Shown piece after piece: positions 28,711 to 38,841 of a stretch of DNA of 64,000 nt (positions within the stretch are counted from its first letter, which is position 1; the number at the start of each line of letters is the position of its first letter). Source of the DNA: Candidatus Entotheonellaceae bacterium (lineage in GTDB: Bacteria > Tectomicrobia > Entotheonellia > Entotheonellales > Entotheonellaceae); NCBI GenBank assembly GCA_965238075.1, contig OZ250173.1:3008001-3072000 (forward strand), in the 5' to 3' direction. The notes beneath the pieces are model-generated. The model saw nothing but the letters and a program-made list of their open reading frames with translations, was not told where the DNA came from and did no database searches. Position numbers and translations under genes: made by a program.

Positions 28711-29880
28711 TCAACCGCACCCGCGCGACCCCAGGCGTGAGAGGCGATGCTCGGCCTGGCTGTGCAGGTTGTCGACGTCGCGTTCTCGCAGCAAGGTGCA
28801 GTAGAGCTGGCGAGCGGTTTCGACCGACCCGCGCTGCTCGTACAGGGTTGCCAGGTAGAACTTCGCCCACAGGCTTTCGTCCCGGGCTGTGCGCGGGTCG
28901 TTATTGATGGCGCCGCGAAACGCCTCGAAAGCCAATTCAGGCTGATTGGTGTCGAGCAGGGCCCGGCCCCAGGTGTAATACAAGTCAAACCGTTCATCCG
29001 TACCGACGAGGGTCTCAGGCCGCTCCGCCAGGGTCGTTGCCAAGGCGCTCAGCGTGGCGGCTGCTTGCGCTTTATCGCCGTGCTCGAACTGGCTGCGTCC
29101 GGTCAGCAGACTGAAGTGGCCGTTGCCGGGATACGCCTGGCGCAACGACTGGCCGAGGGCGATGGCTTCTGGGTAGCGCTTCTCCACGACGTACAGTTGG
29201 AGCAGGAACGTCCGCGCCAAATCCTGGCTGAATCGTCCGGTCTCGGCGGCGCGCCGGAAATGATGGACGGCGTCCTCGGGACCTTGCAGGGCGATGCCGC
29301 CCAGCAAGCGCTGCACCAGAGATGGGACGCCATCCCCGACGAAGTAAAGCATCCCCAGACCCAGATGGGCATCGCTCATGGCCTCGTGGGACAGGAGTGA
29401 TTTTTCCAGCCGTGAACGTCCTTGCGCGGCGAGTTGCAGTGGGGTCCATGGCGCATCCTGCTGCGGCAGCAGGGCATCAAAAACGGCGGCCAGTCCCACG
29501 AGCAATTGCAACCGGCCTTGGCGGGGCGACTCGGCGAGTTGCCGCTGACCATCTTGCAGAATTTGCGCGAAAAGCTTGCGCGCGGTGACATGTGCCGGGG
29601 GGCGCTGGCGGGTTTGCCAATGCGTTTGCAGATAGGCTATGATGCCCCGCGTCAATTGCGTTTCAAGGGTTTCTCGGCCATCCGGTTCCGCACGGCTGAC
29701 GGCGTCGTGAGCCTGGACAAAACGCAGGTGCAACGCCTCCTGCACGGCGCCTCTCATGATGCCGAAAGGTAGCTCGGGGGCGGCCTCGTGGGCATCGGCG
29801 AGGCCCAGTTCCGCCGCGCCGGGCCGCAGGCACAGGAACAGCGCAAGAATTGCCAAAAAGGTTCGACGGCGCCGTTTCAT
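28711..29880 (-). CDS. Exported tetratricopeptide-repeat protein
   Basis: Signal MKRRRRTFLAILALFL; TPR-like helices (DAHLGLGMLY, YYTWGRAL, FYLATLY). Confidence 0.75.
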   Translation of the reverse strand: MKRRRRTFLAILALFLCLRPGAAELGLADAHEAAPELPFGIMRGAVQEALHLRFVQAHDAVSRAEPDGRETLETQLTRGIIAYLQTHWQTRQRPPAHVTARKLFAQILQDGQRQLAESPRQGRLQLLVGLAAVFDALLPQQDAPWTPLQLAAQGRSRLEKSLLSHEAMSDAHLGLGMLYFVGDGVPSLVQRLLGGIALQGPEDAVHHFRRAAETGRFSQDLARTFLLQLYVVEKRYPEAIALGQSLRQAYPGNGHFSLLTGRSQFEHGDKAQAAATLSALATTLAERPETLVGTDERFDLYYTWGRALLDTNQPELAFEAFRGAINNDPRTARDESLWAKFYLATLYEQRGSVETARQLYCTLLRERDVDNLHSQAEHRLSRLGSRGCG

Positions 29881-30019
29881 ATTCGCCTCCACATGCCATC
29901 CGTGTCCGCAACCTAGCTCGGTCATTTATTATAGACAGGTGATGCCGAAGGGGAAACCCAGCGGCGGAGCCGGTATTGTATGCTCTTCCGCGGCCGCCAT
30001 TCTCCGGGACGCTCCGATC

Positions 30020-30247
30020 ATGATGAAAACGTGCCCCCTGTGTCAGACGGAGATGCCCGAGCGCTACAATTATTGCTACCAATGCGGCGAGCATGTTGGC
30101 GAGACGGCGGCGCTGCCGGTTGACGTCGACCCGCAGGTCGCCGAGACGCAACGGCGCCAGGAATGGGTTATCCAATACGGCTGCTTAACGCTCATCATCG
30201 TCTGGACAATCTTCGGGTTGTGGTTTTTCTTCAACATGAACCGTTAA
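30020..30247 (+). CDS. Small zinc-ribbon protein with C-terminal TM helix
   Basis: CPLC...CYQCG plus hydrophobic tail. Confidence 0.75.
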   Translation: MMKTCPLCQTEMPERYNYCYQCGEHVGETAALPVDVDPQVAETQRRQEWVIQYGCLTLIIVWTIFGLWFFFNMNR

Positions 30248-30283
30248 CGGGCGGACCCTTATCTGGGTCTCGGAGTTAGGGCT

Positions 30284-30535
30284 GTGCGACAAACACCGGA
30301 TGAAGCGTGGAAGAAAATCCACACGGCTTTCAATGATGCGGAACTGCACCTGATTACGGGCATCCTGGCCGGGGAGGGGCTGGAGTGGCGTATCAAGTCC
30401 CGGCGGGTGCCGCAACTGCCGATGTCGCACGGGGCGCTGGGGGAAATGGAAATCTACGTGCCTGAAGCCGATGCCCCGTTCGCCCAGCGTATCTTGTTGA
30501 TTTATCGCAACGCTTCGGCGGCTGGCGACACATGA
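30284..30535 (+). CDS. DUF2007-like putative signal-transducing protein
   Basis: ELHLITGILAGEG...EIYVPEADA pattern; GGAG RBS. Confidence 0.75.
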   Translation: MRQTPDEAWKKIHTAFNDAELHLITGILAGEGLEWRIKSRRVPQLPMSHGALGEMEIYVPEADAPFAQRILLIYRNASAAGDT

Positions 30536-31695
30536 CGGAGGCTACCATGCAGACGTATGACGTGATCGTTGTCGGTGTCGGGGGGATGGGCAGTGCGGCG
30601 GTGTATCACCTGGCGACACGGGGCCAGCGGGTTCTGGGCCTTGAACAGTACGACATTCCGCACCAGCAGGGATCGTCTCACGGCATCTCGCGGATCATCC
30701 GCATGGCGTACTACGAGCATCCGTCATACGTGCCGCTCTTGCACCGCGCTTACGAGCTGTGGTGGGCACTGGAGCGGACCGTCCAGGAGCGCCTGTTGCA
30801 CGTCACCGGCGCATTGAACATCGGCACCGAAGCGGGCGACGTATTCACCGGGGCGGTGAAGTCAGCGCAGGAGCACAACCTGGCACACGAAATTCTGGAG
30901 GCCGAGGCGGTTCGACGGCGATTCCCCGGCTACGGGGTGCAGGCGCCGCTGATGGCTCTGTACGAGCCCCAGGCCGGACTTCTGGCGGCTGAACGGTGCA
31001 TCGTGGCGCACGTGACGGCGGCCCTGCAACACGGCGCCGAAGTCCACGGCCGCGAGACCGTTGAGGGTTGGGAGACCAGCGATGCCGGCGTGCAGGTCCG
31101 AACCAATCGCGGCGTCTATCAGGCCGAGCGTCTGGTGTTGACGGCCGGCGCTTGGACCCATCGGCTTCTGGCGCCCTACCACGGCGTGCTGCAACCGGAG
31201 CGGCAGGTGCTGATCTGGATGCAGCCGCGCGTGCCGAGCGCCTTTCACATGGCCGCGTTTCCGGTTTTCATTTTGGATGTCGAGGAGGGGCGCTTTTACG
31301 GCATGCCGATCTACGGCATCCCCGGCTTCAAGATTGGCCGTTTTCACCATTTGGAACAGCTCGTGGACGACCCTGCCACCATGGACCGGGGCTTTCACCC
31401 TGAGGACGAAGACCTGCTGCGCGGCCTTGTACGGCGCTATTTTCCGGACGGCGAAGGTCCGATTTTGTCCACGGCCACCTGTATGTTCACCAACTCCCCC
31501 GACGGGCATTTCGTCATCGACGTTCACCCCGAAGACCCGCGAGTGGTGTTCGCTGGGGGCTTTTCAGGACACGGCTTCAAATTCTGCCCCGTCATCGGCG
31601 AAATCCTGGCCGACCTGGCTGAGGACGGCGCCACTCGGCACGATATTTCCCTGTTCAGCGCCGCGCGCCTGGCCCCTTCCGCCGTCGAGAAATAG
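30532..31695 (+). CDS. solA: N-methyltryptophan/sarcosine oxidase
   Basis: GVGGMG, GSSHGISRIIR, TCMF (FAD-attachment Cys), FSGHGFKF. Confidence 0.9.
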   Translation: MTEATMQTYDVIVVGVGGMGSAAVYHLATRGQRVLGLEQYDIPHQQGSSHGISRIIRMAYYEHPSYVPLLHRAYELWWALERTVQERLLHVTGALNIGTEAGDVFTGAVKSAQEHNLAHEILEAEAVRRRFPGYGVQAPLMALYEPQAGLLAAERCIVAHVTAALQHGAEVHGRETVEGWETSDAGVQVRTNRGVYQAERLVLTAGAWTHRLLAPYHGVLQPERQVLIWMQPRVPSAFHMAAFPVFILDVEEGRFYGMPIYGIPGFKIGRFHHLEQLVDDPATMDRGFHPEDEDLLRGLVRRYFPDGEGPILSTATCMFTNSPDGHFVIDVHPEDPRVVFAGGFSGHGFKFCPVIGEILADLAEDGATRHDISLFSAARLAPSAVEK

Positions 31696-32490
31696 ATGAG
31701 TCTGTCAGACCTGGAACGCTTGTTCGGCCTGCGTGGCAGAGTGGCGCTGGTCACCGGTGCTTCCAGCGGCTTGGGCAAGGAATTTGCCAGAGGTCTGGCG
31801 ATGGCCGGCGCCGATGTCGCCGTTGTAGCAAGGCGGTTGGAGCGCTTGCAGGCGGTGGCCGCCGAGTTGGAGGCATTCGGTGTGCGGGCGTATCCCGTGC
31901 AGGCTGACCTCCAGCATGAGGAGCAGATCGAGGCGGCCGTCCGGGAGGTGCATGACGTGCTAGGCCCCATTGACATCCTGGTCAATAATGCCGGGATCGC
32001 GCCCGTGGGCCGTGCGGAGCGCCACGATCTGGAAAAATGGCAGCAGGCGCTGGACGTCAACCTGACGGCGGTATTCTTGTGCTGCCAGCACGTCGGGCGT
32101 CGGATGATCGAGCGCGGCCAGGGTGGGCGCATCATCAATATCTCCTCGGTGCTCGGGGAAGGGGCCAACTCGGTGCACCGGACCGTCGGTTACGCCGCTA
32201 CCAAGGGCGCCGTCACCAATCTGACCCGGCAACTGGCGGTCGAATGGGCGGCCCACGGCATCACGGTAAACGCCCTGGCACCGTCCTGGTTCCCGACCGA
32301 AATGATCACCGATCCCCGCCTGGGCCGGGTACACGACGAGCAGCGGACGCGCATGGAGCAATTCACGCCCCTGGGGCGCCTGGGGAGGGAGGGGGAGTTG
32401 CTGGGCGCCATCATCTACCTCGCCTCGCCCTCCGCATCGTACGTGACCGGCGCCGTGCTGCACGTTGACGGCGGCTGGCGAGCCTGGTAG
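31696..32490 (+). CDS. SDR family oxidoreductase
   Basis: TGASSGLG, NNAG, YAATK, VDGGW. Confidence 0.93.
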   Translation: MSLSDLERLFGLRGRVALVTGASSGLGKEFARGLAMAGADVAVVARRLERLQAVAAELEAFGVRAYPVQADLQHEEQIEAAVREVHDVLGPIDILVNNAGIAPVGRAERHDLEKWQQALDVNLTAVFLCCQHVGRRMIERGQGGRIINISSVLGEGANSVHRTVGYAATKGAVTNLTRQLAVEWAAHGITVNALAPSWFPTEMITDPRLGRVHDEQRTRMEQFTPLGRLGREGELLGAIIYLASPSASYVTGAVLHVDGGWRAW

Positions 32491-32578
32491 CTGGGAAAAT
32501 CGCCGCCTTAACGTCTGACTTCTGGGAGGATACGTCTGTTGTCGGGCGGTTTCGTTCGATGCGGAGCCAGATGGGGGC

Positions 32579-32608
32579 TTGCCCTGCGGAAAATACCTGT
32601 GGTAGAGT
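32579..32608 (+). promoter_or_regulatory. Putative promoter of the cysH leader
   Basis: TTGCCC-18nt-TAGAGT with extended TGn. Confidence 0.55.
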
Positions 32609-32651
32609 ACCTAATTACCGTTCAGATTACTTCAAAAGGCAATGACTGCTC

Positions 32652-32774
32652 ATGACGGATATTTCCACGACGAGTTACCGGTTTTCTTCCACGTCACTGT
32701 GTACCCATGAGACTGGCGGCGCGTGTTGTCGCGGCACGGTTTGCTGCGTATGTCAGCCACGGGGGTGTGGATGA
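32652..32774 (+). CDS. Cys-rich leader peptide (40 aa), probable attenuator peptide
   Basis: Manual translation MTDISTTSYRFSSTSLCTHETGGACCRGTVCCVCQPRGCG*; AAAGG at 32635-32639. Confidence 0.75.
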   Translation: MTDISTTSYRFSSTSLCTHETGGACCRGTVCCVCQPRGCG

Positions 32775-32797
32775 AGTAAGCCGTTTTGTCCGTCGTT

Positions 32798-32843
32798 AAA
32801 ACCGCCCACTCCCTGCCGTAGGTGAGTGGGCGGTTTTTATTTT
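32798..32843 (+). terminator. Intrinsic terminator within the cysH leader
   Basis: AAAACCGCCCACTC...GAGTGGGCGGTTTT followed by TATTTT. Confidence 0.85.
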
Positions 32844-32895
32844 GTTGCCGGTTAAGTCTTGAGCCTCGGCATTGCATAGATGGAGGAGTTAAAGA

Positions 32896-33681
32896 ATGGG
32901 TTTTAAACGGATCCGCTTTGACAAAAGTGAAGTTGATGCCATGGCCGCCAGATTCGCCGACGCCGACCCTGAGGAGGTGATCGCGTGGGCTTTGGGGGGT
33001 TTCGGTGACGCTGCGGTGGTGGTCACCGGCTTGCAGGCGGAAGGCATGATTATTTTGGACATGGCTTGCCGGCTTCGGCCTTCGGTTCGCGCCCTCACGG
33101 TGGACACGGGCCGCCTCCCTCAAGAGACCTACGCATTTATTGACCGCGTCCGCGACCACTATCCGGCGATGCGGCTGCGAACTCTCTTTCCCGACCACCG
33201 CGACATCGAAGCATTCACCCGGGAAAACGGCGTGAACCCCTTTTACAACTCGACGGACCTGAGGATGCAGTGCTGCAACCTGCGCAAGGTGCGCCCGTTA
33301 GCGCGCGGGTTGGAAAATGCCGATGCCTGGTTTGCGGGGTTGCGGCGCGACCAAAGCTCCTCGCGATCTCACATCAAGAAAGTAGAATTGGATTACACGC
33401 ACGGCGGCATTGTGAAGCTCAACCCACTTGCCGATTGGACCAAGGAAGACGTGTGGGCGTATGTCCGCGAGTATGACGTGCCTTACCACCCGTTGTACGA
33501 GCAAGGTTATCCCAGTATCGGTTGTGGGCCCTGCACGCGCGCCACGTATCCCGGCGAGGATGATCGGGCCGGGCGCTGGTGGTGGGAAATACGTGGCGTA
33601 AAGGAGTGCGGTATCCACTTCTCCCCCGTCACGGGCCGCACCGAACGGAGCAATGGCGCCTTCGTCGCAGCCATGTCGTAG
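32896..33681 (+). CDS. cysH: Adenosine 5'-phosphosulfate reductase (4Fe-4S type)
   Basis: VDTG, CCNLRKV, GLRRDQS, SIGCGPCT, ECGIH. Confidence 0.95.
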   Translation: MGFKRIRFDKSEVDAMAARFADADPEEVIAWALGGFGDAAVVVTGLQAEGMIILDMACRLRPSVRALTVDTGRLPQETYAFIDRVRDHYPAMRLRTLFPDHRDIEAFTRENGVNPFYNSTDLRMQCCNLRKVRPLARGLENADAWFAGLRRDQSSSRSHIKKVELDYTHGGIVKLNPLADWTKEDVWAYVREYDVPYHPLYEQGYPSIGCGPCTRATYPGEDDRAGRWWWEIRGVKECGIHFSPVTGRTERSNGAFVAAMS

Positions 33682-33706
33682 AACCCGGTATGCGACGGCA
33701 GCCTCG

Positions 33707-33736
33707 TTGACATCCTTAAGGCTCGGCACTTATAAT
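33707..33736 (+). promoter_or_regulatory. sigma70 promoter upstream of the dksA-like gene
   Basis: Perfect TTGACA-18nt-TATAAT. Confidence 0.8.
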
Positions 33737-33837
33737 GTCGCTCTTTTTTCCGTGAGAGGCGGTTATCAGAACTCGTTTTGCCGGCCTCTCCTGAACACGT
33801 TTTGCGGTGTAAGTCGTTATCAGAGGGTGGCAGCGTC

Positions 33838-34215
33838 ATGGCAGAATCATACGAAAAGATACGGACGGATTTACAACAGCGGCGTCAGGGTATCCTCTCA
33901 AAAATTTCCGACGAACAACACCTGCAGGCGATTGATGATGAGGCCACCCACGGAGATTCCCTCGATATTGCCAGCAATGCCCGCGACCGCGAAATTACGT
34001 TCATGCTGAAAAGCCGCGAGTTGGATGAGTTGCGTGCCATTGAGGATGCCCTCGAGCGCATGAATCACGACGATTACGGGATTTGCGTGAACTGCGAAGA
34101 CCCGATCGAAATCAAGCGCCTTGAAGCGATTCCGTGGACACGTTTCTGCCGCGGTTGCCAGGAAGAAATGGAAAGCCGCAAAGCCGGCGGACATCTGAAT
34201 TACGACGTGTCGTAA
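33838..34215 (+). CDS. dksA: DksA/TraR C4 zinc-finger protein
   Basis: DSLDIA coiled-coil tip, YGICVNCEDPI...RLEAIP...CRGCQ. Confidence 0.85.
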   Translation: MAESYEKIRTDLQQRRQGILSKISDEQHLQAIDDEATHGDSLDIASNARDREITFMLKSRELDELRAIEDALERMNHDDYGICVNCEDPIEIKRLEAIPWTRFCRGCQEEMESRKAGGHLNYDVS

Positions 34216-34233
34216 CTACTCTGAGCCTCCCTC

Positions 34234-36741
34234 ATGGCAAGCGACGCCGAGCTCGCTCAATCATCCGCTTCTGATTCCACGCCCCTATCCACATCATCCC
34301 CTTGCATCGCCAAGGTCGTCGTCGAGCTTCCCCTCGAAGATCCGCTTGACTACCGCATTCCGCCAGCCTTGCAGGAGTATTGTGCGGTCGGCCAACGCGT
34401 GATGGTCCCGGTCGGGCACCGGGAACTGCTCGGCTACATCGTCGGACTTGCCTCTCACAGCGCCGTATCCGATCTCAAACCGTTGAATGAGGTGCTGGAC
34501 GAGACACCGGTGGTCTCGGCCGACCTGCTGCGGCTAACGAAGTGGGTCGCCGACTATTACCTGTGCTCGTGGGGTCAGGTCCTGAAGGCCGCCATACCCG
34601 AGGGCTTACGGGAACGCTCGGTCACCGTTTACGACCTGACGCCCGAGGCCCGGCAATCCCCCTCGGCATGGCCGGTGGGCAGGGCAGGGGAAGTGCTTCG
34701 TTGTCTGGAACGCCAAGGCGCCTCGCGCCGCCAGGACCTCGCCAAATCCGTTGGCACGGGCAACCTCGCGGGTTTGCTGCGGCGTCTGCAAGATCAAGGA
34801 CTCATCAGCCAGACTCGCCAGCGCCATGCTCCCAAGGTACGGGAACGCACGACGACCATGGTGCGCTTGCTCCCCACGGCTGACGCCGCCCGGACCCTTG
34901 TGGAGCAGATTCGACCCCGCGCCCCGAACCAGGCGAAGGTCCTGGCTTTACTGTTGGAACAGCCGGCATGCGATTTGAAGACGCTGCGGCGTCAGCTTGC
35001 GGGCGCCCCGGCTGCCGTCAAGCGCCTGCAGCAGCAGGGGCTCGTGGAGGTATACGAGGTCGAAGACCTGCGCCGGGTCGTCCCGTTGCCGCCCGACCAG
35101 CCGGCCTCGTTGCCTGTCCCGAATGACGCCCAACGGTGCGCTCTGGAACAGATCGAGGCCATCCTGGCGGCACCAGACGGGACACCGATTTTGTTGCACG
35201 GCATTACCGGCAGCGGCAAGACCGAGGTTTACATGCGCGCGATTGCCGGCGTGCTGCGCCAAGGCAAATCGGCGCTCGTCCTGGTGCCTGAAATAGCTCT
35301 GACCGACCAACTCGTGCAGCGCTTTGCGGCCCGTTTTCCTTCCCGGCTCGGTGTGCTGCACAGCGGCCTTTCCGGCGGGGAACGCTTCGACGAATGGCGT
35401 CGTCTGGCGCGCGGCGAAGCACAGATTGCCATCGGAACCCGCTCGGCAGTTTTCGCCCCGATGCAGCATCTCGGCCTTATTGTCGTTGACGAAGAGCACG
35501 ACACCTCCTACAAGCAGGAGGAAACGCCGCGCTACAACGCCCGGGACGTTGCCATTGTTCGCGCTCAGCAAAGCGGGGCGGTGGTGGTCCTGGGTAGCGC
35601 AACCCCGGCGGTGGAATCGTTTCACAATGCCCAAACGGGCAAGTACCTGCTCCTATCACTACCCCATCGTATTGACGACAAGCCTCTGCCGGCGATCACG
35701 CTGGTGGACCAGCGGGAGCACACGGCGCCGAACGAACGCATCGTGTCCGACCCGCTGCGGGAAGCCATCGCCGCCTGCCTGGAGCGCCGCGAACAATGCC
35801 TCATTCTGATTAACCGGCGCGGTTTTGCCGCCTACCTGCAATGCCGTGATTGCGGCTCGGTTCCCTACTGTGAACATTGCAGCGTGGCGCTGACGTATCA
35901 TCGCGGCACCCACAGGCTGCGGTGCCATTACTGCGGCTTCAACCAAGCGGTGCCGCCGTTCTGCGCGGGGTGCGAAAGCACGTCAATGCGGCCCCACGGC
36001 CTCGGCACCCAGCAGGTCGAATCGGTGCTGAGCGCGCTGTTTCCCGAGGCGCGCCTGGCGCGCATGGACCGTGATACCACACGCGCCAAGGCGGCGCATC
36101 AGCGCATTCTCCGTGCCCTGGGCAACGGCGACATCGACATTCTGGTTGGCACCCAGATGATTGCCAAAGGGCACGATTACCCCAACATCACCCTGGTCGG
36201 GGTGGTGTCCGCCGACGCCAGCCTCTCGATGCCCGACTTCCGGGCGCCCGAGCGCCTGTTTCAACTCCTGACCCAGGTTGCCGGGCGTGCTGGACGGGGC
36301 CAACGCCCCGGACGCGTGCTCATGCAGACTTACCGCCCGGAGCACGACAGCGTGGCTTTCGCATACGGGCATGACTTCACCGGCTTTTTTCAACTCGAGA
36401 TCGCACGGCGGCAGTCCGTTCTCTACCCGCCGTTTTCCCGCTTGGCGCGCTTGATTGTCGAGAACCCGAAGGCCGAGCAGGCGGAGGCAACCAGCCAGCG
36501 AATCGGCGAAACGCTGCAACGCCAGATTCCGCCGCGCTCTGATGTGACCATCCTGGGACCGGCCGAGGCGCCCATCGCCCGGTTGCACGACCGCTACCGC
36601 TGGCACCTCCTTGTGAAGAGCGTGTCGAGCAAGGCGTTGCACCAATGCCTCACCGCTGGATTGGCCGAGGCCCGCCGGCAAAAGGCGTTCCCGCGTTTGA
36701 CGCGCGTCAGTGTGGATATTGATCCGGTCAGTTTTCTGTGA
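34234..36741 (+). CDS. priA: Primosomal protein N'
   Basis: GITGSGKTEVY, DEEH, four CxxC, QVAGRAGR, DIDP. Confidence 0.97.
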   Translation: MASDAELAQSSASDSTPLSTSSPCIAKVVVELPLEDPLDYRIPPALQEYCAVGQRVMVPVGHRELLGYIVGLASHSAVSDLKPLNEVLDETPVVSADLLRLTKWVADYYLCSWGQVLKAAIPEGLRERSVTVYDLTPEARQSPSAWPVGRAGEVLRCLERQGASRRQDLAKSVGTGNLAGLLRRLQDQGLISQTRQRHAPKVRERTTTMVRLLPTADAARTLVEQIRPRAPNQAKVLALLLEQPACDLKTLRRQLAGAPAAVKRLQQQGLVEVYEVEDLRRVVPLPPDQPASLPVPNDAQRCALEQIEAILAAPDGTPILLHGITGSGKTEVYMRAIAGVLRQGKSALVLVPEIALTDQLVQRFAARFPSRLGVLHSGLSGGERFDEWRRLARGEAQIAIGTRSAVFAPMQHLGLIVVDEEHDTSYKQEETPRYNARDVAIVRAQQSGAVVVLGSATPAVESFHNAQTGKYLLLSLPHRIDDKPLPAITLVDQREHTAPNERIVSDPLREAIAACLERREQCLILINRRGFAAYLQCRDCGSVPYCEHCSVALTYHRGTHRLRCHYCGFNQAVPPFCAGCESTSMRPHGLGTQQVESVLSALFPEARLARMDRDTTRAKAAHQRILRALGNGDIDILVGTQMIAKGHDYPNITLVGVVSADASLSMPDFRAPERLFQLLTQVAGRAGRGQRPGRVLMQTYRPEHDSVAFAYGHDFTGFFQLEIARRQSVLYPPFSRLARLIVENPKAEQAEATSQRIGETLQRQIPPRSDVTILGPAEAPIARLHDRYRWHLLVKSVSSKALHQCLTAGLAEARRQKAFPRLTRVSVDIDPVSFL

Positions 36742-36808
36742 CGGAGCGGGCTGGAAAACGAGCCATGCCTGCAGGGGCGGATCCGCTCCCCACGAAAAGG
36801 GTTTTACT

Positions 36809-36845
36809 CCCTCTCCCCTGGTGGGAGAGGGTTGGGGTGAGCGGG
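36809..36845 (+). repeat. CCCTCTCCC/GGGAGAGGG REP-like repeat
   Basis: Near-identical inverted copy at 39492-39528. Confidence 0.8.
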
Positions 36846-36931
36846 AGGGAGATCAGGACCATGTCCGGTAGGGGTTGTTTCTTACCCGTGGTCGAATTCC
36901 TCATCTCAAACCGCAACCATGACTTTACTGA

Positions 36932-36991
36932 GAGCATGTTTGTGAATAGCGGCGCTCCCAGGCGGGGGCAGGATCATTCACAAACACCCCC
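36932..36991. mobile_element. 60-bp MITE with 3-bp TGA flanking duplication
   Basis: Imperfect 16-bp TIRs containing perfect TGTTTGTGAAT/ATTCACAAACA; TGA at 36929-36931 and 36992-36994. Confidence 0.7.
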
Positions 36992-37232
36992 TGAGGCAGC
37001 GATGCTTGCCGGCGTCAACGATGGCCGCGGCTACTTGGGGCGGCAGCGGGTCGCCTCGGTCGCGGTAGGACTGAATGAACGCCGCCGCTACGCTTTGCAG
37101 GCTTTCCAGTGCCTGCACGGTGGTGTCGCCCCAGGCTTGGCAGCCGGGCAGGGCGACGATCTCGGCTAGGTACTTGCCTTCGGTTTCATCCGACGGTTCC
37201 CGCAGGACGGACGGTAGTCTGTACAGGTCCAT
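36978..37232 (-). CDS. HicB-family antitoxin, 3' end altered by the MITE
   Basis: EGKYLAEIVALPGCQAWGDT...GDPLP. Confidence 0.8.
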   Translation of the reverse strand: MDLYRLPSVLREPSDETEGKYLAEIVALPGCQAWGDTTVQALESLQSVAAAFIQSYRDRGDPLPPQVAAAIVDAGKHRCLRGCL

Positions 37233-37470
37233 GTCGAGACTCCCCAACGCATTCTGCAAGCTTGATTCCTTCGGCAGTCTGTCGTATTTCCCCTGCTGTA
37301 TCAAGGCCGACAGCAGGCAGAGAAGCCCTTACTAGCCCTGGAGAAACCATGACCATCAACACACTCCGAGCGTACTGCAATGAGAGTACGAAAGTATCTC
37401 AGAAGCAGGCCCTTGGACGGGTGGAGGACTTCGTGATGACGAAGCGTATGGCTGACGAGGGAAATCCTGA

Positions 37471-38841
37471 ATGAGGATACGTAAAAACCGTCCTTATGGG
37501 GCGAGTTCAAAGTGGGAACGGCTGGCCGATGCGGGACCAGGGCCTATCAATGTTTATTGGGATGCTGCATTCCTCTCCCGATGCAGTGAGCGGGAAGCCT
37601 GTGCCTGGCTCGAGAACCGGCCTGTGAATTACAATTCTCTGACTGGGGTACCCGAAACGCCTCCAGAAAGCCACGTCCTCGAATATATCCTGTATCGACG
37701 GGACTCACCCCTAGTTGATCTTATACTTGCTAGGTATGGGCGGTCTCGGTCCGTGCTTGAACGAGTGTTCAGGCGTTCAACTTTATCCATAAGAGCCGTT
37801 GCCTGCGGTAACCCCTCCCTTTTCTACGGCGAAAAGGTGCGATTCACGACCTCTGCCCCTGAAATCTTTCTGCCTATTGTCACGCATGGTTCTCTCGCAG
37901 AGCTTCGCGCGATCTGTGAGAACCTACACATGTTCAGTAATTTTTATGCCTACCTTGCTGAATGTTGGGAGGGCTGGGGACATACGCAATTTAATCCTGA
38001 TACGCAGGTATCAGACGACCGCTTTAAACGCATACTGTTTTTCTTGAGTCAAAACCCCCGCATTTCAACGCCATTTGAGGAAAGTAAACAACGTGGCTTT
38101 GGTTACGAATTTCCTGTGGTACGGGAGTACGAGGAACTACAACAAAAATGTTGGGAACTTGCAAAAGTCATCCCGGTTGAACGAGAGTGGGCATACATCC
38201 TTTCTGAACTCTATCGGAATCTCTGGGACGGACATTATAACTTCGATCATATTGAGGCAGTGTTGGATCGCTGGCGTCCAGCGAATGAGAGCTTCCATGA
38301 GTTTGAAACATCCCCTTTTGAACGGATAAGGGAAGAGATCGCGGCCAAGTTTCTTACACCGAAAATCGAGATGTTGAACAGCGATGATCCTGCAATGAGA
38401 AAAGCCTTCTACCGCACATTTGATCCTGAAAGACCCTACTATGAAACAGACCGGATTGAGTGGCGTGAAATGGACTGGACCGAGTGGCTTGCACGCGATG
38501 AATACTGCCATTTGTGGCTGGAATCCAATCAAAAGATCTGGCAGTCACCCCTTGGTCGACGGAAGTTAGAAAACTTGCTCTGGCATGCCTCTCGTAGAGA
38601 TCACTCAGACTTGGACTTCTTCAGAGAACGAGAGGAAGAATATCGAAAGACAAACCCAGAGTGGTTCGAAAATGAAGAGGAACAAGAAGAATACCATGAA
38701 CCTGAACCTGATCGACTTGGGAATCTTGAGCGCGCGATCGAGAATCTGGGAGCGGCATTCGGCCAGCGACGTGCTACCGACGCGATCTGGTTCCTTGTCG
38801 CAGCGCTTATCGGATCTTTCGTTGGGGCGGCGATCTGGTAA
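37471..38841 (+). CDS. Hypothetical 456-aa protein, lower GC, C-terminal TM anchor
   Basis: Long ORF in AT-richer DNA with short alternative frames; acidic stretch then AIWFLVAALIGSFVGAAIW. Confidence 0.8.
   Translation: MRIRKNRPYGASSKWERLADAGPGPINVYWDAAFLSRCSEREACAWLENRPVNYNSLTGVPETPPESHVLEYILYRRDSPLVDLILARYGRSRSVLERVFRRSTLSIRAVACGNPSLFYGEKVRFTTSAPEIFLPIVTHGSLAELRAICENLHMFSNFYAYLAECWEGWGHTQFNPDTQVSDDRFKRILFFLSQNPRISTPFEESKQRGFGYEFPVVREYEELQQKCWELAKVIPVEREWAYILSELYRNLWDGHYNFDHIEAVLDRWRPANESFHEFETSPFERIREEIAAKFLTPKIEMLNSDDPAMRKAFYRTFDPERPYYETDRIEWREMDWTEWLARDEYCHLWLESNQKIWQSPLGRRKLENLLWHASRRDHSDLDFFREREEEYRKTNPEWFENEEEQEEYHEPEPDRLGNLERAIENLGAAFGQRRATDAIWFLVAALIGSFVGAAIW

Follow-up and report, generated by a model that had tools for sequence, protein, structure and literature searches.

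What controls cysH, the gene for adenosine 5′-phosphosulfate (APS) reductase, in an uncultivated, sponge-associated bacterium? APS reductase and sulfite reductase supply the sulfide used for cysteine synthesis, and control of sulfate assimilation is credited to CysB, CymR, riboswitches and T-boxes; we know of no study of regulation in the phylum of our organism, Tectimicrobiota. The gene lies in a 64,000-nucleotide (nt) stretch of the genome of a Candidatus Entotheonellaceae bacterium (contig OZ250173.1, positions 3,008,001 to 3,072,000 of the forward strand), here called the window; coordinates without a prefix are positions in it. The whole genome, G000, has 3.35 Mb and 62% G+C. A preliminary description of this DNA had proposed a cysteine-responsive attenuator in front of cysH, made up of a promoter, an AAAGG ribosome-binding site, an open reading frame (ORF) with seven Cys codons, a terminator hairpin and a complementary pair that could form an antiterminator. 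All of these, and cysH itself, were found where they had been placed. From the sequence, we conclude that cysH is probably governed by a ribosome-mediated leader-peptide transcription attenuator that senses cysteinyl-tRNA. The original proposal gains support from the conservation of the leader, with a coding pattern, in all five other genomes of the genus, from a paralogous leader in the same genome and from leaders before cysH or sir (a sulfite-reductase-family gene) in other genera. An additional pairing segment (region 1), the paralogue, the amino-acid conservation of non-Cys residues and a published cysS motif all go beyond that proposal.

The cysH leader and its conservation within the genus

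The leader ORF, the hairpin with its U-run and cysH follow one another on one strand (Table 1). Seven of the 40 codons of the leader are Cys codons (17, 25, 26, 31, 32, 34 and 39), among them two tandem pairs. Short ORFs with at least five Cys residues and at least 12% Cys are common in G000 (458 cases), so that the case rests on context and conservation and not on the Cys count. In a scan of the genome that covered 718 terminator-like hairpins and 1,435 pairs of a short ORF with a hairpin, the cysH leader was nevertheless the densest Cys cluster.

Leader DNA was found in the five relatives that make up the genus set with G000 (G001 to G005), with 85-96% identity across 341 nt. All genomes in the alignment retain the leader ATG as well as the promoter hexamers, the terminator and the ribosome-binding site of cysH, and Cys17, Cys25-26 and Cys31-32 are invariant. 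The 26 variable columns of the ORF fall mostly on third codon positions (16, against seven first and three second positions), and within the first 23 codons third positions account for nine of the 10 variable columns. Moreover, by the method of Nei and Gojobori the proportion of nonsynonymous differences (pN) was lower than that of synonymous differences (pS) in 15 of the 15 genome pairs. The third-position bias, together with pN < pS, indicates that the leader ORF is very likely translated and under constraint at the amino-acid level. A 1-nt insertion in G004 shifts the frame after Cys32 and leaves the nucleotides GGGGGTGTGGA unchanged; that the frame was lost and the G-run nucleotides were kept suggests that the tail of the cysH leader is constrained as RNA. 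A search of genomes of all species with the cysH-type peptide returned five loci only, all in the same genus.

The promoter hexamers and the TGTGG show no change in the alignment of the six genomes. The hexamers match the consensus at eight of 12 positions, as counted by hand, and the threshold of our simple consensus scan was nine; the scan, whose loop limit is 8 bases, a size exceeded by what the outer stem of the leader hairpin encloses, called neither the leader promoter nor the terminator hairpin. By eye, TTGAC[AC], a spacer of 17-18 nt and TAnnnT/C stand at the equivalent place in the leaders of G006, G008, G010, G012, G011 and G013. The transcript would start near 32615, which would leave a 5′ untranslated region of about 37 nt before the leader ATG. 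An ATG at 32642, considered as an alternative start of the ORF, was rejected, being ACG in G001 and G002. A hairpin resembling a terminator, with a T-rich tail (32533-32558), lies 43 nt 3′ of an SDR gene (31696-32490) and just 5′ of the leader promoter; its position between the two suggests that the leader is probably a transcription unit of its own. On the opposite strand, an ORF of 182 amino acids (32650-33198) overlaps the leader, its terminator and the beginning of cysH. This antisense ORF is almost certainly spurious, and gene finders could call it and so hide the leader.

Table 1. Features of the cysH locus in the window, and leaders of related genomes
Feature	Position	Strand	Description
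Promoter-like site	32579..32608	+	TTGCCC at 32579-32584, 18-nt spacer, TAGAGT at 32603-32608, TGn just 5′ (extended −10)
Shine-Dalgarno-like AAAGG, weak	32635..32639	+	12 nt 5′ of the leader ATG; kept in six of six genomes
Leader ORF, 40 codons	32652..32774	+	MTDISTTSYRFSSTSLCTHETGGACCRGTVCCVCQPRGCG; TGA stop at 32772-32774
Region 1, pyrimidine-rich TTCTTCCACGTCACTGTG	32684..32701	+	Ends at the Cys17 codon; predicted to pair with region 2
Region 2, G-run CACGGGGGTGTGGATGA	32758..32774	+	Last leader codons and stop; predicted to pair with region 1 or with the terminator 5′ arm
Region 3, terminator 5′ arm AAAACCGCCCACTCCCTG	32798..32815	+	From folding
Region 4, terminator 3′ arm and U-run TTTTTATTTTGTT	32819..32846	+	From folding
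cysH Shine-Dalgarno GGAGGAG	32882..32888	+	Invariant in six of six genomes
cysH	32896..33681	+	Assimilatory thioredoxin-type APS reductase, 261 amino acids; PF01507, TIGR02055
G006 leader			MMRLVLLPLPCCCCQGCCPCRQGGGVT (...PCCCCQGCCPC...); two tandem terminators, then sir-cysH operon
G009 leader			MLSMSALRFSALCCCCCCCCACCCCNTGGSG (...CCCCCCCCACCCC...); terminator, then sir
G012 leader			MMFLSACLCATPCCCCCCACCCCAAGGGGAGRLSG (...CCCCCCACCCC...); terminator, then sir
G010 leader			MNHGSTIIQGISSRRTHQTGGMCCC...; two tandem terminators, then sir
G008 leader			MNLDSTIIQGRTNLCTHHTGGTCCC...; terminator, then RimK-family ATP-grasp gene
G013, G011 and G007 leaders			VN[YH]GATIIQGIS.RRTH.TGGYCCC...; before sir, without canonical terminator

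Related leaders in the genome and in the family

A paralogous leader was found in the same genome (G000:C1:3211803-3211919), where the peptide MNFGSTVIQGISPHCTHCTGGACCSYEGHNTFRRGRFG is followed by GCCCACTCCCTG...CAGGTGAGTGGGC with a T-run and then by a gene for a protein of 750 amino acids with NIR_SIR and NIR_SIR_ferr domains. No NCBIfam equivalog cut-off is reached by this protein, which matches the NirA family best, so that its role as a sulfite reductase is only inferred. CTHxTGGACC is common to the two leaders, encoded with synonymous differences, and their terminator cores are nearly identical. The arm motif occurs as a hairpin at these two loci only in G000, and the paralogue was the only related match in the scan of 1,435 pairs. 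The presence of a paralogous leader before the NIR_SIR gene suggests that the two loci form a small regulon responsive to cysteine. In G004, the C-terminal tails of both leaders, that of cysH and that of sir, are frameshifted.

Cys-codon-rich leaders were present in each of 14 genomes of the family, six of them from the host genus, and precede sir or cysH in 13 of the 14. The leaders of the relatives carry 4 to 12 Cys codons. Those of G006, G009 and G012, which have long Cys runs, show no other similarity and have a terminator of the same type after them. The tandem terminator hairpins of G006 (L043, about 1470-1540) and G010 (L042, about 1500-1580), both on the minus strand, lie about 40 nt apart, each with a U-run. 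In G008 (L041:440-1432, minus strand), a leader and terminator of the kind described below as motif-type precede a gene for a RimK-family ATP-grasp protein of 331 amino acids instead of sir or cysH. The protein, which may be a ligase that consumes cysteine, scores 55.9 bits against TIGR00768, under the cut-off; this assembly has a completeness of only 62%. In three genomes from the two other families of the phylum (G014 to G016), the sir-like matches are found within operons or at the ends of contigs.

Most of these peptides resemble one another over more than their Cys codons. The consensus, MNxGSTIIQGISxRRTHxTGGxCC, runs over about 24 residues up to the Cys pair, and the cysH copy, ...SLCTHETGGACC, is a diverged paralogue. 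An exact T-H-x-T-G-G-x-C-C was found in 22 of 23 motif-type leaders (12 from the genus, one each from G007, G008, G010, G011 and G013, and five from metagenomes), the exception being a second copy in G011 with TDQTGGTCC. The five metagenomic peptides came from a profile search of 5.8 billion proteins. Among the sir-type leaders of four genera, pN was lower than pS in 15 of 15 pairs, over mostly non-Cys codons, and beyond the Cys run the tail changes freely, even in frame. Motif-type leaders have two or three consecutive Cys codons; the three motif-less leaders have runs of four to eight. No Pfam or NCBIfam family matched any of the leader peptides. We interpret these patterns as the mark of a leader peptide family under amino-acid selection up to the Cys pair, present in at least four genera and in metagenomes.

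Other searches were less informative. A scan of metagenomes with the terminator-arm pattern gave at least 118 loci; among the matches listed, 21 had a T-run, and none of these had a Cys-rich leader of the cysH or sir kind (one ORF with three Cys codons appears to be a chance match). Because the pattern has little specificity, the scan says nothing on distribution. In G000 we found no other classical attenuator with a convincing leader for Trp, His, Thr, Phe or Ile. The peptide MKPYWWF..., the one candidate inspected, was rejected: it lies between genes judged by their sequence to be of membrane or cytochrome type and is probably a gene end. A small ORF at G000:C1:1060874-1061038 (plus strand), MRKPIVVFLTLAMFLVGSSVAFGASHEEGEANPCNPCNPCNPCNPCNPDGGDSN, resembles a signal peptide and has NPC repeated five times; a terminator hairpin comes after it, and no long ORF occurs in the 300 nt 3′ of it.

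RNA pairing, the proposed mechanism and the gene neighbourhood

The terminator hairpin (32798-32837, with the U-run ending at 32846) has a folding energy of −29.4 kcal/mol, compared with a mean of −13.5 (standard deviation 2.4) for shuffled sequences (z −6.6), and none of 200 shuffles was as stable. Over the six genomes, 97.2% of the cells of the stem are paired, and two pairs have changed on both sides in a compensatory manner. The paralogue and four other genera have the core of region 3, CCCACTCCC, in their terminators as well. In the minimum-energy fold of the leader, region 1 is paired with region 2 and the terminator, formed by regions 3 and 4, is left intact. The best duplex of regions 1 and 2 has −12.4 kcal/mol; 94.9% of its cells are paired in the six genomes, compared with at most 62.8% when the partner is slid, the helix itself having been derived from the same sequence. 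The candidate antiterminator consists of GGGGGTG (32761-32767), which is complementary to CACTCCC (32807-32813), and the duplex of regions 2 and 3 has −16.2 kcal/mol. The stop codon of the leader lies inside region 2. Together, these segments appear to form a layout of alternative 1:2, 2:3 and 3:4 pairings like that of the trp attenuator, which region 1 completes. A search of Rfam with positions 31500-34500, at E values up to 10, gave four matches, all far below the gathering scores and none relevant.

A similar arrangement is seen beyond cysH. In each of seven independent leaders, the terminator 5′ arm pairs best with a run rich in G that falls in the final 36 nt of the ORF or at the stop codon. 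In four of the seven (designated g1 cysH, g1 sir, G006 and G008), this G-run has its best upstream partner ending at the first Cys codon or 1-2 nt short of it; in G006 the helix of 12 base pairs ends exactly at the start of the CCCC codons. The upstream partner in G012 ends just before the main Cys run. When the 2:3 duplex was compared with 2,000 random genome windows, the fraction of windows with an equally strong duplex was 0.058 for the cysH leader, and 0.213, 0.004, 0.065, 0.018, 0.003 and 0.001 for the other six. Statistical support for the antiterminator is weak at the cysH locus. The G-runs at the leader stop codons (such as GGAGGTGA, AGGAGGGTG and GGGAGGGGTGA) also resemble strong Shine-Dalgarno sequences, and the terminator 5′ arm (CCCACUCCCU, 32805-32815) resembles an anti-Shine-Dalgarno sequence, at the same positions in relatives.

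We also folded the leaders under a 28-nt ribosome mask, on RNA that stopped short of the terminator 3′ arm. The three expected states were clear in four of the seven independent leaders (g1 sir, G006, G009 and G010): the 5′ arm was free without a ribosome or with the ribosome at the stop codon, and was paired to the G-run with the ribosome on a Cys codon.

These segments suggest the following mechanism. Transcription would start near 32615 from the conserved promoter, and a ribosome would translate the 40-codon leader. When cysteinyl-tRNA is plentiful, the ribosome would reach the stop codon and cover region 2, regions 3 and 4 would form the terminator, polymerase would halt in the U-run and cysH would be off. 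When cysteinyl-tRNA is scarce, a ribosome stalled at Cys17 would mask region 1, or one stalled at Cys25-26 or Cys31-32 would keep regions 1 and 2 apart. In either case the free region 2 could pair with CACTCCC in the 5′ arm, so that no terminator would form and cysH would be transcribed. Without translation, region 1 would pair with region 2, leading to termination. From this layout we infer that the ribosome stalls, that the folds alternate in vivo and in which direction cysH is regulated.

Several observations weigh against the attenuator as drawn. What stands of the antiterminator proposed in the preliminary description is the complementary pair itself, kept in five of six orthologues, the G005 pair containing an A-C mismatch. 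The duplex is not significantly stronger than shuffles that preserve composition (−16.2 against a mean of −14.9 kcal/mol, p 0.34), its pairs are kept among the genus orthologues little more often than after a slide of two columns (87.0% against 85.7%), and no covariation was seen among the cysH orthologues; nor did the 1:2 helix show double changes across the six genomes. The comparison with related genomes that had been suggested thus bore out the conserved Cys-codon clusters and the covarying terminator stem but not a covarying antiterminator. Likewise, folding with and without a ribosome mask behaved as anticipated in the four independent leaders named above but clearly in only two of the six cysH orthologues, G001 and G004; it was marginal in G000 (0.54 at Cys31 and Cys32) and not as expected in G005, G003 and G002. 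In G012 the 5′ arm was paired in every state. Cys34 and Cys39 lie near region 2, which stalling there would mask. The leader has a weak ribosome-binding site and the distance from AAAGG to the ATG is long, and in other genera these sites are, by eye, weak or absent. No recognisable terminator was found at the sir leaders of G013 and G011, so that some members of the family must work differently. Finally, a device that only counts codons would not need selection on non-Cys residues.

RNA libraries (four runs from two studies, available as assembled contigs only) speak neither for nor against termination. None of the four had a contig bridging 32796-32832, and three had loose ends there. The contigs end at 32749, 32779, 32794 and 32795 and resume at 32833, 32855, 32858 and 32932. 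Depth is given per contig and can neither compare the leader with cysH nor show transcript ends or levels. The contig of run X9 that starts at 32855 carries 22 unlike letters in front, presumably sequencing adapter, and a contig of another run starts at 32858. Possible sources of the start at 32855 are the 5′ end of an RNA, the end of a fragment and an artefact of assembly.

The cysH product, the sole PF01507 match in the genome (PAPS_reduct, 9.7e-45), scores 248.7 bits against NCBIfam TIGR02055 (thioredoxin-dependent APS reductase, cut-off 235.3) and 272.5 bits against NF002537; the first of these scores upholds the preliminary naming of the gene. The neighbours in 29000-38000 encode, besides CysH, a DAO oxidoreductase, an SDR protein, a DksA-type zinc-finger protein and PriA. 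A perfect consensus promoter (33707-33736; TTGACA, 18 nt, TATAAT, 12 of 12 matches) lies 26 nt past the cysH stop and 5′ of the DksA/TraR-type zinc-finger gene (33778-34215); a promoter right after cysH suggests that cysH is monocistronic. A terminator-like hairpin (33724-33740) overlaps the −10 element of this promoter.

Alternative explanations and relation to known systems

The amino-acid conservation leaves room for a variant of the attenuator in which the nascent leader peptide is itself active in the exit tunnel and makes stalling at the Cys codons more sensitive, or gates it, perhaps under the influence of a sulfur metabolite. The conserved stretch has about the length of the ribosome tunnel, so that an active nascent chain is conceivable. 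It would be an arrest or sensor module for which two or three Cys codons suffice, whereas relatives lacking the motif would need four to twelve, or one that senses a sulfur metabolite directly; we regard both wordings of this idea as tentative and rather doubtful. It accords with the excess of synonymous change in both sets of 15 pairs, the cysH-type and the sir-type, over mostly non-Cys codons, with the near-invariant T-H-x-T-G-G-x-C-C before a variable tail, and with the shorter Cys runs of the motif-type leaders. However, the three poly-Cys leaders share the terminator type and do without the motif, which is therefore not essential to the device, and part of the sequence could be kept by common descent together with overlapping constraints on the RNA. 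Moreover, no known arrest motif was recognised in these peptides, and the lack of a Pfam or NCBIfam family applies here as well. If the idea were true, the device would combine sensing of tRNA charge with sensing by the nascent peptide.

The other explanations do away with cysteinyl-tRNA sensing or with the intrinsic terminator as its outlet. The short ORF could be a gene in its own right, whose small Cys-rich product would serve as a ligand for metal, an iron-sulfur cluster or a redox group, with cysH transcribed separately. Purifying selection on the amino acids, a conserved promoter-like site of its own and a very strong terminator would all suit such a gene, as would the nature of both downstream enzymes, which we take to be iron-sulfur proteins. 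Nevertheless, we think it improbable: the tail of the peptide is frameshifted in G004 at both loci, dissimilar poly-Cys leaders hold the same position before the same genes, and linkage to sir or cysH is kept in 13 of 14 family genomes. In addition, only 52 nt separate the U-run from cysH, with no promoter called there by the consensus scan, and the doubling of the terminator in two genera fits a regulatory stop better than a gene end. Translational attenuation, in which a stalled ribosome frees the cysH ribosome-binding site, or else Rho-dependent termination, also seems very unlikely for cysH. The former has been shown experimentally for polycysteine short ORFs of Mycobacterium smegmatis (bioRxiv 10.1101/834739), and the sir leaders of G013 and G011 without a canonical terminator would suit it. 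At cysH, however, a hairpin of −29 kcal/mol with compensatory stem changes leads into a U-run, and the ORF is not leaderless, with about 37 nt between the presumed start and the ATG. As regards pairing to the cysH Shine-Dalgarno (32882-32888), this judgement covers the minimum-energy fold. We consider it extremely unlikely that the locus encodes a precursor of a ribosomally synthesized and post-translationally modified peptide (RiPP) or a metallothionein-like peptide, or that the element is an RNA or DNA palindrome bound by a protein or ligand. The Ca. Entotheonella lineage is known for its peptide natural products, and the hairpin sequence is conserved across genera beyond what a generic terminator needs. 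Against this, the neighbours in 29000-38000 include no maturase-type gene, in keeping with the preliminary description, which had seen no RiPP maturase nearby, and the paralogue adjoins a NIR_SIR gene. Furthermore, the element always stands before sulfur-assimilation genes, on the same strand and with a U-run, its arm motif forms a hairpin at two loci of the genome only, and no Rfam family reached its gathering score. A cysteinyl-tRNA-sensing attenuator is thus the reading that we prefer.

The enterobacterial leader attenuators of trp, his, leu, thr, ilv and pheA have, like the cysH leader, a translated leader rich in codons for the end product, an intrinsic terminator before the first structural gene, four segments that can pair 1:2, 2:3 and 3:4, and a stop codon at region 2. 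The cysH leader differs in that it would sense cysteine, in its single sulfate-assimilation targets (cysH, sir) and in its uncultivated Tectimicrobiota host. Its Cys codons are spread over 23 codons instead of forming one run, its non-regulatory residues appear to be selected, and there is no sequence relationship. TnaC and SpeFL are arrest peptides that sense tryptophan and ornithine; in them, amino-acid conservation extends over the entire nascent chain as far as the stall site, as it extends to the Cys pair in the motif-type leaders. We know of no sequence similarity between the two groups, and arrest in the leaders described here is hypothetical.

The remark in the preliminary description that Cys-rich leaders had been predicted in some Actinobacteria was correct. 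Seliverstov et al. 2005 (PMC1262725) predicted leaders with Cys runs in front of cys operons in Mycobacterium and Propionibacterium acnes, and in front of cbs in Bifidobacterium longum, and emphasised that they had found no terminators. Canestrari et al. 2020 (bioRxiv 10.1101/834739) report that leaderless polycysteine short ORFs of M. smegmatis, a mycobacterial type first predicted by Seliverstov et al., control genes by unmasking a ribosome-binding site. By that account, the mycobacterial ORFs are, like the leader of cysH, Cys-rich upstream ORFs before cysteine-related operons, with several loci under one signal (a 'ribulon') and with conserved non-Cys residues in some, for which options similar to ours were raised. 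The cysH leader differs from them in its 5′ untranslated region of about 37 nt, as predicted from an unmapped start, in its strong intrinsic terminator and in the absence of detected similarity. Another parallel comes from a survey that appeared in 2021 and dealt with structured noncoding RNAs of 26 bacterial genomes (PMC8632094). It describes uORFC-8-2, a predicted upstream ORF before cysS in Rhodobacterales. There, too, two tandem Cys codons lie in a stem, an intrinsic terminator follows and attenuation by sensing of cysteinyl-tRNA was proposed. From the cysH leader, uORFC-8-2 differs in acting on cysS, in its phylum, in having two stems and another peptide, in the position of its tandem Cys codons (near codons 14-15, in the first stem, in place of the pairs at 25-26 and 31-32) and in being a prediction only. 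A literature search, for which most subscription journals were outside reach, found no Cys leader combined with an intrinsic terminator on cysH or on a sulfite reductase gene, and no work on regulation in Tectimicrobiota.

An attenuator on cysH and on a sulfite-reductase-family gene would add cysteine to the amino acids that the ribosome reads for the control of transcription, by way of ORFs of 27-42 codons that annotation misses. Close relatives that place either a motif leader with two or three Cys codons or a motif-less poly-Cys leader before the same gene, with the same type of terminator, amount to a natural experiment on the role of the nascent peptide. Compared with the systems above, the cysH leader combines textbook attenuator logic with an amino acid and targets for which it has rarely been described, a new phylum, and a conserved nascent peptide that this logic leaves unexplained.

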